Part shown: positions 34,460 to 40,518 of the stretch, in pieces
Layout: every line of letters begins with the position of its first letter
How positions within the stretch are numbered: the first letter of the stretch is position 1
Assembly: GCA_964521785.1 (NCBI GenBank)
Contig: CAZFTE010000005.1
Span: forward strand, 1,364 to 65,363
Reading direction: 5' to 3'
Origin: an uncultured Lachnospiraceae bacterium
Lineage (GTDB): Bacteria > Bacillota > Clostridia > Oscillospirales > CAG-272
DNA: 64,000 nucleotides
The notes under the pieces: model-generated
What the model was told of the DNA's origin: nothing
The model's database searches: none
The model's input: only the letters and a program-made list of their open reading frames with translations
Translations under genes and position numbers: made by a program

Positions 34460-36706
34460 TTATTTGAGCAAGCCGCACGCATTTTCGTACGCTGTCTTTA
34501 CCTGATTTGCATTGAGAGCAACATCGTAAACCTTAACGTCTACGCAAGAGAAGTCTTTCATCGGGAAGCCGTTGGGGCCGATATCGTTACCGATGGAAAG
34601 CTGGTTAGCATAAGGAACGAATCTTGTATCGCCTATCCAAAGTTCACCTTTAAGCTCGCTACTTCCCTGCAATTCGCCGTTTACATAGATAGCTGTATAG
34701 AACTTACCGTCGTAAACGATACCTGTTGCAACAACGTGTGTAAGGTCTGTTGCGGAAGCTTTGCCTTTAGCGTATGTGTAGTTGTAAGATTTCTTTTCTG
34801 TCGTATATGTGCAGAAACCGGGAGTGCCGTGGTTCGTCGTAGCGATACCGAGACCGCCGTATTCAGTCGCGCAAAGTACGCCCGCCGTAGCTTTGTCTGT
34901 GCCGTCCATATCGTTGCTGATATAGAATGCTTCAAGCGTAAAGCCTGCCGCACCGTTATAAAGATCGTTTATAGTAGATGTGTCATATTTGTCGATAGTA
35001 AGAGTACCGGACTGACCGGATGCCGTTACATTGAGAGCTGCCAAAGTGTTCTTCAAACCGTTATGAGTGAACTCTTTTTCGCCGATAGTAGCGCCGCCGA
35101 TAAGTGTAACTGTGGAGTTGCCCTTAACGTCTGTGGCTGTGCCGTCTGCGTTGAAATCGATATCAACGATAGCTTCGGGAAGAACGGAAGTATCTGTATC
35201 TGTTACGGATACTGTCGCTGTAAGAGCATTGCTCTGTGCATCCCAAGAGTCTACTGCTACAACTTCTATCTTATAATCTGTACCTGCCGTAAGAGTTCCT
35301 ATGGAATAAGAAAGCTCTTTCTTCATGCTTTCTGCGGGGTTGGAATAGAGATAGAAGTCTGTGAGGTATTTGGATTCGCTGATAACAGCGCCTGTTTTTA
35401 CGTTTGTAACTTTTACGATGTAGTGGTGAACGAAATCATCGTCAGCACCTGCGTTGAAAGATACTGTGGCAACATTGGAGCCACCTATCTTAGCTGTTAC
35501 AACTTTGAGTTCGCCGCTCATTGTGGGAGCCGCGTTGGAATTTGCACGGTCTTCTGTGTATGCTTTAAGGTGAGAACCGTCTGCGGAAGGAGCGGAAAGT
35601 TCCCAAGTTGTCTTGAATGTGGAATTATCGGCAAAGTTCATTCTTGTGATCCTTACGTTGCCGTTCTTGTCCACCTGAACGAGATGACCGGAAGAAGTCT
35701 GACCTGCATCGGAAGGAACTGTGCCGCTTACATTTGCATATCCGTTTTCGATAGCCATGTATGTTACGGAACCGCAACCGATAGACGTGAATTTATCCTG
35801 CATGATAGAGCGTTCGTCGTTTATCGGGAAATGAGTATGACCGCCGAATGTCATTACCTGAGGATATTTTTCAAGGATAGTTGTAAGGTCTTTTGTATAC
35901 CAACGGTGGTTACCCGTGAGAAGTGTGCTACCGTATGTCGTGCCGTATACCATAGGATGAGTATTTACGAAAACATACTGGTTGGGGTTTTCCGCTGTGA
36001 TCTTTGCAAGAGTATCGTCGAGCCACTGTTTAGCTTTTTCTGAGTACAAAACGCCGCCTGCGTCCGTACCGATGTATTCTTTATCGATAGGATTGATACA
36101 GAGGAAGTGATAACCGTTCACGATAGTGTGTGTGCAACCGATGGAAAGGTCGCTCGTTTCTTCTTCATATGAATTGTACTGAGAACCGAATATGGAGTAG
36201 AAAGAGGACATTGTGAGGTTTTCATATGTGTAACCTGCGTTGCAGTTTACGTCATGGTTGCCAAGGGAGAAGATAAGCGGAACATTTACGGGAGACAAAA
36301 CTTCCTCGTAAGCCTGTTTAAATTCTTTTACCTGGTTAGTTTGAGCGTTCTGAACAAGGTCGCCTACAAAAAGGACTGCGTTAAGGTCGCTACCCGATTC
36401 GATAGCATATGTTGAAAGCTGCTGGAGAGCGCTCTTGAATTTTTCGAGCGTATCGATGTTGGGGTATTTGTGCTGAGTATCGGATATAGCCGCAAAAGAA
36501 AGAATGATGTTGTTTTCATCAAAATCTTTGGAAGGTGTTACGGCATTGTCCGTTGTCTGGTCCGAAGAGCCTGTTGTCTGTTCGGAATGATCTGTCGTGT
36601 TGTCTGTTCCGACATTCGTGTCTGTTGTTTTGTTTTCTCCGCCTGCGCAAGAAGCAACAGCGAAAAGCATTGCAACAACAAGCAATAACGATAAAAGTTT
36701 TTTCAT
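34460..36706 (-). CDS. surface lipoprotein: calcineurin-like metallophosphoesterase plus beta-sandwich region plus C-terminal LamG/concanavalin-like domain
   Basis: 748 aa with lipobox VASC. Metallophosphoesterase motifs GDLVQN, GNHD, GGHTHF. The C-terminal ~200 aa are lectin/LamG-like (assigned from composition and pattern only). Confidence 0.65.
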   Translation of the reverse strand: MKKLLSLLLVVAMLFAVASCAGGENKTTDTNVGTDNTTDHSEQTTGSSDQTTDNAVTPSKDFDENNIILSFAAISDTQHKYPNIDTLEKFKSALQQLSTYAIESGSDLNAVLFVGDLVQNAQTNQVKEFKQAYEEVLSPVNVPLIFSLGNHDVNCNAGYTYENLTMSSFYSIFGSQYNSYEEETSDLSIGCTHTIVNGYHFLCINPIDKEYIGTDAGGVLYSEKAKQWLDDTLAKITAENPNQYVFVNTHPMVYGTTYGSTLLTGNHRWYTKDLTTILEKYPQVMTFGGHTHFPINDERSIMQDKFTSIGCGSVTYMAIENGYANVSGTVPSDAGQTSSGHLVQVDKNGNVRITRMNFADNSTFKTTWELSAPSADGSHLKAYTEDRANSNAAPTMSGELKVVTAKIGGSNVATVSFNAGADDDFVHHYIVKVTNVKTGAVISESKYLTDFYLYSNPAESMKKELSYSIGTLTAGTDYKIEVVAVDSWDAQSNALTATVSVTDTDTSVLPEAIVDIDFNADGTATDVKGNSTVTLIGGATIGEKEFTHNGLKNTLAALNVTASGQSGTLTIDKYDTSTINDLYNGAAGFTLEAFYISNDMDGTDKATAGVLCATEYGGLGIATTNHGTPGFCTYTTEKKSYNYTYAKGKASATDLTHVVATGIVYDGKFYTAIYVNGELQGSSELKGELWIGDTRFVPYANQLSIGNDIGPNGFPMKDFSCVDVKVYDVALNANQVKTAYENACGLLK

Positions 36707-36748
36707 GATGTTCCATCTCCTTTATGGACTTTATAATTTAACATATAT

Positions 36749-36777
36749 ATAATATCACATATTTTCATTGATGTCAA
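36749..36777 (-). promoter_or_regulatory. sigma-A promoter for the phosphoesterase lipoprotein gene
   Basis: On the minus strand: TTGACA (36777-36772), 17-nt spacer ending in TG-A, TATTAT (36754-36749). Confidence 0.55.
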
Positions 36778-36877
36778 TAAACAGTTTTGTGCTTTTTGTT
36801 TGCAAAACATGGACAAAATAGCATTTTTTCTGTTTAAAAATCGCATCTATCTCTCACATCGAAAATGCGCTCTCGGC

Positions 36878-36914
36878 AAAAAAAATATATCGGTCTTACG
36901 ACCGATATATTTTT
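36878..36914 (-). terminator. intrinsic terminator after the flotillin gene
   Basis: 11-bp stem ATATATCGGTC/GACCGATATAT, loop TTAC, with A8 and T4 flanks. Confidence 0.75.
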
Positions 36915-36918
36915 CATG

Positions 36919-38352
36919 TTATTCGTTTGCGGGATCGTCTTTTTTCGCATCATCGTCAGCCTTCTTCGTGGGAGCGATAGCGGCTTTACCGCCCGCAAAA
37001 CCCGCGATAAGCGAGGATATGTCGATGCCTGTGGATTCTTTAACGCCTTCCATGATCTGATTCGTACTGCTCATAACATCGCGAACTACCTTTGTGGAGT
37101 TGCCGTCGCCGTACATAACGATCTTGTCTGTACGAGACAAAGGCTCGGCGGCATTCTTAACGACTTCGGGCAATGCATTAAGGTACATTTCAAGCACGGA
37201 AGCTTCGCCCATCTTCTTCTGAGCTTCGGCTTTCTTTTCAATAGCTTCGGCTTCGGCAAGACCTTTGGCGCGGATACCTTCCGCTTCCTGCTCCATAGCA
37301 TAGCGGATAGCTTCGGCTTCGGCTTTTTTCGCCTCGGCTTCGCGGATAGCTTCGTATTTTTTTGCGTCCGCTTCGCGCTGACGTTTGATAAGCTCGGCTT
37401 CTGCCTGTTTTTCGGACTGATATTTCATAGCGTCCGCTTGCTTCATGATATTCGCTTCAAGTTCTTTTTCCTTGATGGAGATATCTTTCTCCGCAAGCTC
37501 CGCTTCTTTTTCGCGACGAGCGATATCCGCATTCGTCTTAGCAATCTCGATTATCTTACGCTGATTTTCTTGCTGAATGGAGTAAGCCGCGTCTGCGTCT
37601 GCCTTTTTCGTGTCGGCTTTCACCTTCATGTCGGCTTGCTGAACGGCAAGTTCAGCGTCCTGTTCGGCTATCTTCTTTTCAGCTTCGACTTTGACCGCGT
37701 TAGCTTCTTCCTGTGCCTTAGCCGTTGCTATGGCTATGTCGCGCTGTGCGTTAGCCTTGGCGATCTGAGCATTTTTGCGTATCTGTTCTACGTTGTCGAT
37801 ACCCATGTTCTCGATAGTGCCTGCGGCATCTTTAAAGTTTTGGATATTAAAGTTTACTACCTCGATACCGAGTTTTTTCATATCGGGAACAACGTTTTCT
37901 GTTATCTTCTTTGCAACGCCCTGGCGGTCCTGGACCATCTCTTTAAGTCCGACGGAACCAACTATCTCTCGCATATTACCTTCAAGCACCTGCGTTACAA
38001 GGTTTACAAGGTCTGCCTGACGCATACCGAGGAGAGATTCGGAAGCAAGCTTGAGCGCTTCGGGGTCGGAAGATATCTTGATGTTCGCAACGCCGTCTAC
38101 CGTAACGTTGATAAATTCATTTGTGGGGACAGCTTCGCTCGTTTTAACGTCAACTTGCATTACACGGAGGGAAAGACGGTCAACTCGTTCAAAGAAAGGT
38201 ATTCTGAAACCTGCTTTACCGATGAGTATTCTGCGCTTTTTGCCAAGACCGGAAATGATGTATGCCGTGTCGGGCGGAGCTTTAAGATAGCCGCTTGCGA
38301 AAAATACGATGATCAATAATGCAATTATTGCAATGATGATGAAATGGTTCAT
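36919..38352 (-). CDS. floT: flotillin-like SPFH/band-7 protein (FloT/YuaG type)
   Basis: 477 aa with an N-terminal membrane hairpin, an SPFH domain, and a long Ala/Glu/Lys-rich coiled-coil flotillin-repeat region. Confidence 0.85.
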   Translation of the reverse strand: MNHFIIIAIIALLIIVFFASGYLKAPPDTAYIISGLGKKRRILIGKAGFRIPFFERVDRLSLRVMQVDVKTSEAVPTNEFINVTVDGVANIKISSDPEALKLASESLLGMRQADLVNLVTQVLEGNMREIVGSVGLKEMVQDRQGVAKKITENVVPDMKKLGIEVVNFNIQNFKDAAGTIENMGIDNVEQIRKNAQIAKANAQRDIAIATAKAQEEANAVKVEAEKKIAEQDAELAVQQADMKVKADTKKADADAAYSIQQENQRKIIEIAKTNADIARREKEAELAEKDISIKEKELEANIMKQADAMKYQSEKQAEAELIKRQREADAKKYEAIREAEAKKAEAEAIRYAMEQEAEGIRAKGLAEAEAIEKKAEAQKKMGEASVLEMYLNALPEVVKNAAEPLSRTDKIVMYGDGNSTKVVRDVMSSTNQIMEGVKESTGIDISSLIAGFAGGKAAIAPTKKADDDAKKDDPANE

Positions 38353-38401
38353 AATATTCCTCCAAAATAAGTATTTTTTGGTCTTGCGGAAGCCTTTTAA
38401 A

Positions 38402-38439
38402 CAAAAAAGACTTTTACCGCTTAAACAGTAAAAGTCTTG
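38402..38439 (-). terminator. intrinsic terminator of the leader/sORF unit upstream of floT
   Basis: 11-bp stem AAGACTTTTAC/GTAAAAGTCTT, 10-nt loop, followed on the minus strand by TTTTTTG. Confidence 0.8.
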
Positions 38440-38445
38440 TAAAAA

Positions 38446-38541
38446 TCATTTAAAAGATCCTGTATACACCGAGCATCTGCAGCTGCCGTCATGACGATGC
38501 ATACACATTGTAAAATACAATGTACTACTCCCTTTTGACAT
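38446..38541 (-). other. candidate small ORF (31 codons from ATG, or 24 from an SD-preceded TTG) or structured leader RNA
   Basis: Minus-strand reading gives MSKGSSTLYFTMCMHRHDGSCRCSVYTGSFK*. GGGAG lies 7 nt upstream of the in-frame TTG (codon 8). The region contains an 8-bp hairpin ACATTGTA/TACAATGT. It sits between a consensus promoter and a terminator. Confidence 0.35.
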
Positions 38542-38545
38542 TTTC

Positions 38546-38574
38546 ATTATAGCATATTGCCAATATTTTGTCAA
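38546..38574 (-). promoter_or_regulatory. perfect-consensus sigma-A promoter
   Basis: On the minus strand: TTGACA (38574-38569), exactly 17-nt spacer, TATAAT (38551-38546). Confidence 0.75.
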
Positions 38575-38663
38575 TAGTCAGCAAAAATTTTTTCAAAGCG
38601 ACAAAAATGAACAGTGAAATGCTCCGTCGAGAGCATTGCGCCGTTCATTTATCGTTCTTCTAT

Positions 38664-39917
38664 TTAAGAAAATTCGGGTGCTGCCTTTTCGGTTATTACC
38701 TTATCGGTTATAACTATCTTCGTATAGCCCTTTTCTTCGCGGAGCGAGGGAGACTCATACATGATAGGCTGCATAAATTCTTCCATTATCGCGCGAAGAC
38801 CGCGCGCGCCCGTACCGCGTTCCTTTGCGAGTTCGGCTATCTTGACGATAGCTTCGTCCGTAAATTCTATATCGAGGTCATCGAGTGCGAACAGCTTCTT
38901 ATATTGCTTAACTATCGCGTTTTTCGGCTCTGTCAATATTCTTACGAAAGCGTCCGTATCGAGCTGATCGAGGCTCACTATAACGGGTATCCTTCCCACG
39001 AGTTCGGGGATAAGACCGTATTTTACTATATCGTGAGCTGTCGCATTTTTGAAAACGGAGACATCTTTCGTCTCGTTCTTGCTCTTGACTTCACTTCCGA
39101 AGCCTATGCCCTGTTTGCCTTTTCTCTTTTCGATTATCTGCTCAAGACCGTCGAACGCGCCGCCGCAGATGAACAAGATATTAGATGTATTTATCTGAAT
39201 AAATTCCTGTCCGGGGTGCTTACGTCCGCCCTTCGGAGGAACGTTGGCAACAGTGCCTTCAAGTATCTTGAGAAGCGCCTGCTGAACGCCTTCACCCGAA
39301 ACGTCTCTCGTGATAGAGCGATTTTCGCTCTTACGAGATATCTTGTCTATCTCATCGATATATATGATGCCGCGTTCCGCGAGCTTTTCGTCGCCGTCTG
39401 CCGCCTGGATAAGACGAAGAAGTATATTTTCAACGTCCTCGCCGACATATCCCGCTTCTGTAAGCGTTGTGGCATCTGCTATGGCAAAAGGAACTTTAAG
39501 CGTTTTCGCGAGCGTTTGAGCCAAGAATGTTTTGCCAACACCCGTAGGTCCGAGCAAAAGCACATTGCTCTTCTGTATCTCAACGCCATCGTCGCTCTCT
39601 TTCTGCAATATACGTTTATAGTGGTTATAAACGGCAACGGAAAGAGCCACTTTCGCCTCGTCCTGTCCGATAACGTAATCATCAAGAACTTTTTTTATAT
39701 CCTTGGGTTTGGGAAGCTCGGAAAGTTCGGGCATTGCCTGCAATGCGCCCTCTGCAGATTCCTTTTCGTCCTCTATCTCGGACAATATCTCGTTGCAAGC
39801 CCAAACGCACTGATTACAGATATTCGCGCCCGTAGCCGAAGGTATCAAAAATTCTACCTGTCTTTCGGTCCTGCCGCAAAAGGAGCATCTGTGTTCTGTA
39901 TTCATGTTGTCAGCCAT
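38664..39917 (-). CDS. clpX: ATP-dependent Clp protease ATP-binding subunit ClpX
   Basis: 417 aa with an N-terminal zinc ribbon (CSFCGR..CNQC), Walker A GPTGVGKT, and IYIDEIDK. Confidence 0.95.
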
Positions 39918-39933
39918 TTTTCAGCACCTCTGC

Positions 39934-40518
39934 TTATGCTCTTTTTTCAATAACCTTATCGATAAGACCGTAATCGGCAGCTTCCTGTGCGGACATGAAG
40001 TTATCTCTTTCTGTATCCACTGCGATCTGATCTACTGTCTTACCTGTTTCACGAGCGAGTATCTCGTTGAGTTTCTGACGAGTGCGGAGGATATGGTCCG
40101 CGTGTATCTTGATATCGCTCGCCTGACCCTGCATTCCGCCCAAAGGCTGATGTATCATTATCTCGCTGTTGGGGAGCGCCCAACGTTTACCCGGAGTACC
40201 TGCTGCAAGCAAGAATGCGCCCATGGAAGCCGCCATACCGATGCAAATCGTGCAAACATCGCATTTGATATAATTCATCGTATCGTAAATAGCGAAACCT
40301 GCGGAAACGGAGCCGCCGGGGCTATTGATATAAAGCATTATATCCTTATCGGGATCCTGAGACTCAAGGAAAAGAAGCTGTGCAACAACAAGAGAAGCTG
40401 TTGTGTCGTTTACCTCGTCTGTCAAAAAAATGATTCTGTCGTTAAGAAGGCGAGAATAGATATCGTATGCGCGTTCGCCTCTGCCTGTCTGTTCAACGAC
40501 TGTTGGTACAAGTGCCAT
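39934..40518 (-). CDS. clpP: ATP-dependent Clp protease proteolytic subunit ClpP
   Basis: ClpP catalytic contexts [11 protein letters not shown] and MIHQPLGG. Start moved to ATG 40518 (AAAGGAG upstream); the ORF-track extension reads through a repeat hairpin. Confidence 0.93.

Follow-up and report, generated by a model that had tools for sequence, protein, structure and literature searches.

In this study, we propose that a flotillin gene of an uncultured Lachnospiraceae bacterium (assembly GCA_964521785.1, contig CAZFTE010000005.1; the 64,000 nucleotides (nt) analyzed here are referred to as the window) is controlled by a metal-sensing RNA. The leader located between clpX and this gene on the minus strand is a member of the yybP-ykoY class, and thus belongs to one of the most thoroughly studied kinds of metal riboswitch rather than to a new RNA class. 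It very probably operates as a Mn2+-sensing riboswitch that acts on transcription as an ON switch, and the FloT-like flotillin gene behind it appears to be monocistronic. The element has the fold, the conserved loops and the mutually exclusive helices of this class, and its linkage with flotillin genes is conserved. An earlier sequence-only reading of the region had considered an unclassified riboswitch among other options; the riboswitch is retained, whereas the label unclassified gives way to the yybP-ykoY Mn2+ class.

The architecture described in the sequence-only reading, with a TTGACA-17-TATAAT promoter, a leader and a strong terminator between clpX and floT, is confirmed. The promoter matches the consensus at 12 of 12 positions, has a 17-nt spacer with TG and is the top promoter-like site in a 4-kb scan (36500-40500). 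The leader between promoter and flotillin gene measures ~138 nt, and its fold beats 200 of 200 shuffled sequences (z = -4.2). The terminator hairpin (38438-38407, minus strand; AAGACUUUUACUGU-UUAA-GCGGUAAAAGUCUU) counts 14 pairs including G-U, closes with a 4-nt loop, reaches -16 kcal/mol and is followed by a T-run ending in TTTTTTG. The Shine-Dalgarno (SD) sequence follows this T-run after ~40 nt and the gene after ~50 nt; a minus-strand scan between the terminator and the flotillin ATG gave no second promoter-like site, just as had been claimed. For comparison, 80 loci of close flotillin relatives (78–96% identity) were sampled from metagenome-assembled genomes (MAGs) labelled Oscillospiraceae, Clostridia or Eubacteriales. 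Both promoter boxes together reach at least 10 of 12 consensus positions in 41 of the 46 scorable orthologous leaders, and the distance from the end of the -10 box to GGGAG is 12–14 nt in 41 of 42 well-scoring orthologues. From this fixed distance, the 5' end of the transcript is expected at the foot of helix P1.1, at ~38541-38539 on the minus strand of the window.

The four-way junction was assigned by eye on the window sequence, and a covariance model (R1) was then built from the flotillin-linked elements alone. On the model alignment 90.5% of the cells are standard pairs, compared to 36–44% when the 3' partners are slid by 1–3 columns. Compensatory two-sided changes are found in 28 of the 35 modelled pairs, none of 500 shuffles attains any observed measure, and each of the six helices (P1.1, P1.2, P2, P3.1, P3.2, P4) is supported individually. 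A model-based alignment is biased toward the structure supplied to it; we therefore rely on the slid-partner controls and on alignment-free single-sequence folds, which contain exactly three hairpins in 35 of 47 minimum-energy structures. The ACATTGTA/TACAATGT hairpin of the sequence-only reading is present as described, while a GCATC/GATGC stem proposed alongside it occurs neither in the minimum-energy fold nor in the fold supported by covariation. When conservation of a peptide is compared with conservation of RNA structure, it is the structure that is maintained.

The most constant positions are located in the loops of the metal site. GGAGUA of L1 recurs in E. coli mntP, E. coli alx and the Rfam consensus, and the strand facing it reads AAGA in 32 and GAGA in 15 of the 47 elements; in the shared 3' strand of L1 and P1.1, AGAC.UU is invariant. 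The L3 bulge has C at its second position in all 47 copies and A at its third position in 45. The two exceptions (L064, 12-126; L079, 1097-1208) carry ACUAAAC as L3, with U replacing the Mn2+-ligating adenosine, and their aptamers may have an altered metal selectivity or a shifted loop register. One further copy (L078, 2124-2295) has accommodated a branched insertion of ~60 nt in P2 with all other features kept (59.2 bits).

The assignment to the yybP-ykoY class is based on matches in both directions. An Rfam scan of the leader at gathering thresholds, as suggested by the sequence-only reading, returned nothing at the site; in the permissive E-value mode the match with the lowest E-value is RF00080 (29.5 bits, E 2e-6). 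This match aligns GUCA..GGGAGUAG, the first hairpin and the second helix with its internal CGUCA, and the L1 motifs of the flotillin-linked elements align with the Rfam consensus GGGGAGUAG. In the reciprocal test, R1 was run with filters off on E. coli K-12 loci. It found the experimentally validated leaders of mntP (L081, 1462-1574; 37.3 bits, E 6e-8) and alx (L082, 1372-1502; 35.8 bits, E 1.5e-7), both spanning R1 positions 1-111 of 111 just 5' of the respective gene, with the next-best match at E 0.73. In the crystallized members the L3 loop reads UCA41AUUC (L. lactis) or ACA48UACU (X. oryzae), and N7 of the L3 adenosine is the Mn2+-selective ligand (Suddala et al., PMC6754395). The register of the window L3, UCAUGAC, matches both metal sites. 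From the family membership and these retained residues we infer Mn2+ as the ligand. Other classes are not favored. The NiCo (czcD) riboswitch, the other metal riboswitch built on a four-way junction, was absent from the 19 Rfam matches with E up to 10, and the trpB ncRNA motif RF04312 was rejected, as its 36.4 bits stay below the gathering threshold of 59 and come from the terminator hairpin and T-run.

Aptamer and expression platform are interlocked. The 5' arm of the terminator coincides with the 3' strand of L1 and P1.1 in 47 of 47 copies, starting at the conserved (A/G)AGACUUU, and each copy has an intrinsic terminator with a predicted stability of -14 to -25 kcal/mol and a T-run behind it. 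In 42 of the 47 copies the switching nucleotide can pair in P1.1 as well as in the terminator stem, with matched triple changes (A/U/A in 17, G/C/G in 8, C/G/C in 2, the remainder being G-U variants); the P1.1 pair at columns 6/210 of alignment A2 is AU in 25, GC in 8, GU in 8 and CG in 2 copies. Such dual pairing marks the two helices as mutually exclusive, and the mechanism published for yybP-ykoY riboswitches (PMC6754395) is a competition between the terminator and P1.1, the antiterminating switch helix. For the window leader, a stability advantage of 17.8 kcal/mol is predicted for the fold containing the terminator over the one retaining P1.1. The default state would thus be OFF, and the metal-stabilized aptamer must then act kinetically during transcription, as described for the class. 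Gating of floT by read-through, as the sequence-only reading had it, agrees with the anatomy of a stand-alone promoter, a structured leader and a terminator.

We propose the following course of events. A strong constitutive sigma-70-type promoter would start the transcript at the foot of P1.1, and the nascent RNA would fold into a four-way junction of P1.1-L1-P1.2, P2, P3.1-L3-P3.2 and P4. At high Mn2+, L1 would dock on L3 around the metal, with A38492 providing the N7 ligand. This docking would lock the weak, A-U-rich P1.1 and keep its 3' strand AAGACUUUUAC within the aptamer, so that the terminator is blocked and RNA polymerase reads into the flotillin gene. At low Mn2+, the 3' strand of P1.1 would instead pair with GUAAAAGUCUU, and transcription would stop at the T-run ~50 nt before the gene. 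Flotillin would accordingly be induced in an excess of Mn2+ (possibly also of Ca2+) and may then scaffold or stabilize the membrane machinery that handles cations.

Conservation of the element upstream of flotillin genes in relatives, another check suggested by the sequence-only reading, is found in 46 of the 80 orthologous loci, where GGGAGTA stands ~200 nt 5' of flotillin. A search of 526 kb with R1 returned exactly 47 elements (the window and 46 loci; 53.8–105 bits), all of them directly 5' of flotillin, and no match apart from these. The upstream neighbor is variable: clpX precedes flotillin in only two of the 80 loci (L001 and L004), which indicates that the RNA tracks flotillin rather than clpX, and a link to clpX as its 3' untranslated region or as part of its operon was rejected because the two adjoin in these loci only. 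Mechanical calls of open reading frames (ORFs) downstream of flotillin were heterogeneous and ambiguous, and yielded no clear candidate for a co-transcribed gene that might explain the linkage.

Several results weigh against the proposed riboswitch. The score of the window leader under RF00080 stays below the gathering threshold of 45 bits, and none of 20 orthologous loci reaches this threshold. The threshold is, however, also missed by 20 of 20 metagenome copies, those linked to P-type ATPases included, and among the positive controls (Rfam 15) E. coli mntP attains 41.6 bits, below 45 as well, and alx is unreported at E <= 0.01. Since the E. coli controls fail too, a sub-threshold score has little power and is no proof of absence; the printed Rfam 15 consensus of RF00080 leaves the P1 strands unpaired and the conserved 3' CAAGAC strand uncredited. 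On the structural side, a structure-blind RNAalifold prediction on a MAFFT alignment recovers P3 only (P3.1 and P3.2, with compensatory changes), the other helices needing the model-based alignment, and P1.1 as drawn is present in the single-sequence minimum-energy fold of just 21 of the 47 copies, as one would anticipate of a switch helix this weak. No known Mn2+ exporter is encoded by the gene behind the leader, although such a cargo is typical of the class rather than defining. Finally, 33 of the 80 related flotillin loci have no R1 match, three or four of them being cut near the gene start.

Where they can be read, these riboswitch-less flotillin loci have ordinary promoters and short leaders. 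In six of them (L007, L023, L025, L032, L037, L044; with variants in L029 and L060) the palindrome TTGACAGTCAcTTGACTG lies over the -35 box and spacer of a promoter ~60–100 nt 5' of flotillin. Its resemblance to a repressor operator suggests a protein-based control of flotillin in sister lineages. In two others, a cobalamin riboswitch is located on the opposite strand directly 5' of flotillin (L036, 2006-2249, minus; L040, 2032-2275, minus).

The same aptamer also precedes other genes. Metagenome contigs were scanned with the aptamer-derived pattern AAAGGGAGTAG..CGTCA..AGACTTT, giving at least 120 loci, and the first downstream ORFs were clustered and their representatives scanned against Pfam. 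The cargos comprise Na_Ca_ex exchangers (at least 41 loci), P-type cation ATPases (at least 17), flotillins (at least 10), OAD_beta (at least seven: L175, L083, L089, L112, L198, L200, L201), AI-2E transporters (at least three, among them L155 and L158), CNNM/CorC (at least two: L108, L162), DUF1538 (at least one: L111) and an HflK/C-like SPFH protein (at least one: L154). Some of these are unexpected for a Mn2+ riboswitch, including the beta subunits of Na+-translocating decarboxylases and the second kind of SPFH protein. The R1 scores for representatives of all listed cargo classes fall in one range, indicating that the flotillin-linked RNAs do not form a separate subclass. At least four to five of the metagenome flotillins carrying the pattern are only 46–49% identical to the window protein, and the pairing of RNA and flotillin thus reaches beyond one narrow clade. 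No paper was found in the literature searched that connects riboswitches with flotillin or SPFH genes. The novelty is accordingly confined to the cargo: the recurrent coupling of Mn2+ sensing to flotillin in gut Clostridia is apparently unreported.

The identity of the signal deserves discussion, as the same yybP-ykoY fold may respond at flotillin genes to something other than Mn2+ (or not to Mn2+ alone), such as Ca2+, another divalent cation or pH-modulated metal sensing. The commonest cargos among the metagenome matches listed are Na_Ca_ex exchangers and P2-type (Ca2+-like) ATPases, and the two copies with U in place of the Mn2+-ligating adenosine (L064, L079) point in the same direction. 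Precedents exist as well: in vitro, the mgtA member of S. pneumoniae responds to both Mn2+ and Ca2+ (PMC6649816, PMC11672702), and in the E. coli alx member Mn2+ sensing is tied to alkaline pH (PMC12934788). Yet the C-A of L3 including the adenosine for Mn2+ selectivity, together with the full L1, is retained in the window and in 45 of the 47 relatives, and Mn2+ is the stronger inducer of mgtA in vivo (PMC11672702). We therefore consider a different signal unlikely.

Two further explanations dispense with gene regulation by a metal. In one, the terminated transcript of ~138 nt would itself be the product, a trans-acting small RNA (sRNA), and the control of flotillin would be incidental. The full-consensus promoter and the predicted default termination let one expect an abundant short RNA, and a member of this family in E. 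coli was indeed first catalogued as the sRNA SraF. The element is, however, always directly 5' of a gene with the same orientation, terminator and P1.1 compete in 47 of 47 copies, the element moves with flotillin and not with other neighbors, and its conserved positions are the loops of the metal site rather than a single-stranded seed region, of which none is conserved. A stand-alone sRNA is not needed to explain the data, and we regard it as very improbable. The other explanation, also among the options of the sequence-only reading, is a peptide encoded in the leader, either a Cys/His-rich micropeptide or a leader peptide whose translation attenuates the terminator. The 31-codon ORF with its CxHxH...CxC pattern is present as described and is shared by the nearest relatives of the window (L001-L006), and its ATG could lie at a leaderless 5' end. 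Across the 47 copies, though, a start codon occupies the ATG columns of the window in eight and an in-frame start lies within 30 nt in 13; the peptides are unrelated apart from the GS(S/R) that the invariant GGGAGUAG specifies; a stop follows after 3–9 codons in seven copies; indels are non-triplet, substitutions keep base pairs instead of codons, and no SD precedes the ATG. Its TGA falls inside the P4 hairpin. The micro-ORF, the leaderless ATG and the alternative TTG start were all rejected on these comparative grounds, and the peptide, the least probable of the explanations considered, is effectively refuted.

The yybP-ykoY riboswitch in front of the window flotillin can be compared to several characterized members. 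The E. coli mntP and alx elements are recognized by the model of flotillin-linked elements over the full length of that model, and the alx L3 (UCAUUAC) is near-identical to that of the window. In E. coli, both riboswitches exert their control chiefly at translation or at Rho-dependent steps; their targets are Mn2+ exporters, MntP and the TerC-family Alx. In contrast, the window element has a classical intrinsic terminator. The crystal structures of L. lactis yoaB and the X. oryzae yybP-ykoY RNA (PMC6754395) share with the window the four-way junction, GGAGUA opposite (A/G)AGA, a 7-nt L3 with an invariant adenosine (UCAAUUC and ACAUACU versus UCAUGAC) and a weak P1.1 whose 3' strand is common to an intrinsic terminator, giving an ON switch. 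Unlike in these structures, the cargo of the window member is a flotillin scaffold instead of a transporter, its P1.1 is nearly all A-U and its terminator arm also includes the 3' strand of L1. The mgtA riboswitch of S. pneumoniae (PMC6649816) is likewise a transcriptional ON switch of a Firmicute, with a cargo that did not stand out as a Mn2+ exporter at the time of discovery; it differs in that this cargo is a P2-type Ca2+/Mn2+ ATPase and that a dual response to Mn2+ and Ca2+ is documented.

The nearest published connection between flotillins and Mn2+-handling proteins comes from B. subtilis, where co-immunoprecipitation joined MeeF, a TerC protein that exports Mn2+, with both FloT and FloA, and MeeY with FloA (He et al., PMC10120614, Table 1). 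In that species meeY (ykoY) is under a Mn2+ riboswitch (PMC10120614); the riboswitch governs a TerC protein there and would govern a flotillin in the window. The co-purification ties flotillins physically to membrane proteins that handle Mn2+, which fits the linkage of riboswitch and flotillin. To our knowledge, floT of B. subtilis itself is not riboswitch-controlled. Metal-efflux platforms in mycobacteria are independent of flotillin (PMC9374683).

The regulated gene codes for a protein of 477 amino acids in which two Pfam domains exceed their cut-offs, Band_7 with 95.9 bits and Flot with 29.6. Its alignment with the NCBIfam FloT model runs end to end (residues 5-453) and scores 277.8 bits, short of the equivalog cut-off of 700. 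The translation has a hydrophobic N-terminus and EA-rich repeats, and the protein is by these features a FloT-like SPFH protein with Band_7, a flotillin C-terminal domain, a predicted N-terminal anchor and a predicted EA-rich coiled coil. Directly past its stop codon lies a 15-bp palindromic, bidirectional terminator-like hairpin (36881-36914), and the next gene, a 748-aa metallophosphoesterase, is served by its own near-consensus promoter (TTGACA-17-TATTAT, 36749-36777), for which reasons the flotillin gene appears monocistronic. Upstream of flotillin, the window encodes tig, clpP and clpX. Past the clpX stop codon (38664), a hairpin AATGCTC/GAGCATT (38606-38640, minus) is followed after ~9 nt by a T-run; this hairpin could act as a weak terminator of clpX, and was not called by the scan. 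Elsewhere in the window, a lysine riboswitch (RF00168, 8996-9170, plus strand, 66.5 bits) is the sole Rfam family above its gathering score. The coordinates of the features are collected in Table 1.

Table 1. Parts of the flotillin leader and its surroundings, in window positions; paired strands are given together.
Feature	Position	Strand	Remark
-35 box TTGACA	38569..38574	minus	Same place in most of 46 scorable orthologous leaders
-10 box TATAAT	38546..38551	minus	Preceded by TGc (extended -10)
yybP-ykoY (Mn2+) riboswitch aptamer, four-way junction	38427..38541	minus	R1 covariance-model match, 103.8 bits
P1.1 5' strand GUCAAAAG, switch helix	38532..38539	minus	Pairs with 38428-38434
L1 5' strand GGAGUA(G)	38525..38531	minus	GGAGUA invariant, 47/47
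P1.2	38523-38525 with 38439-38441	minus	Two-sided changes at 2/3 pairs
P2 hairpin CAUUGUA-UUU-UACAAUG	38506..38522	minus	Two-sided changes at 6/6 modelled pairs
P3.1 (5' strand first)	38495..38504 with 38462-38471	minus	Compensatory changes at 8/10 pairs
L3, 7-nt bulge UCAUGAC	38488..38494	minus	A38492 is the counterpart of the Mn2+-ligating adenosine
P3.2 hairpin GGCA...UGCU	38472..38487	minus	Compensatory changes at 4/4 pairs; 96.7% of cells paired
P4 hairpin GGAUC...GAUUU	38443..38460	minus	Two-sided changes at 5/5 pairs; 79% of cells paired
L1 3' strand AAGA (38435-38438) and P1.1 3' strand CUUUUAC (38428-38434)	38428..38438	minus	Terminator 5' arm
Intrinsic terminator and T-run (expression platform)	38401..38438	minus	Stem 38438-38407
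31-codon ATG ORF MSKGSS...SFK	38446..38541	minus	Start and peptide unconserved; not a gene
Regulated gene, SD through coding sequence of the FloT-like flotillin	36919..38363	minus	SD GGAGG 38363-38359; ATG 38352-38350; coding sequence 36919-38352

In summary, the recurrence of this RNA has consequences for annotation as well as for the biology of flotillins. RF00080, as run here, misses the flotillin-linked clade and even the E. coli archetypes, and such leaders will stay unannotated in gut MAGs, where they could pass for novel RNAs or small ORFs. The genes controlled by riboswitches usually handle the ligand directly; a recurrent link to flotillin thus predicts a role of flotillin in metal stress. 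It is possible, although we advance this tentatively, that flotillin is a genuine, selected member of a regulon for Mn2+ (possibly Ca2+) excess in gut Clostridia of the Oscillospiraceae type; in a bolder variant of this idea, the flotillin-linked copies would have shifted toward sensing another cation. With 47 of 81 close orthologous loci (window included) carrying the link between Mn2+ riboswitch and flotillin, a simple and testable hypothesis becomes available for the poorly defined cues of flotillin. If it holds true, rising cytoplasmic Mn2+ would lead to more microdomain scaffold, on which cation exporters or the TerC/Sec metalation machinery would be assembled or stabilized, and bacterial flotillins would gain a defined physiological trigger.

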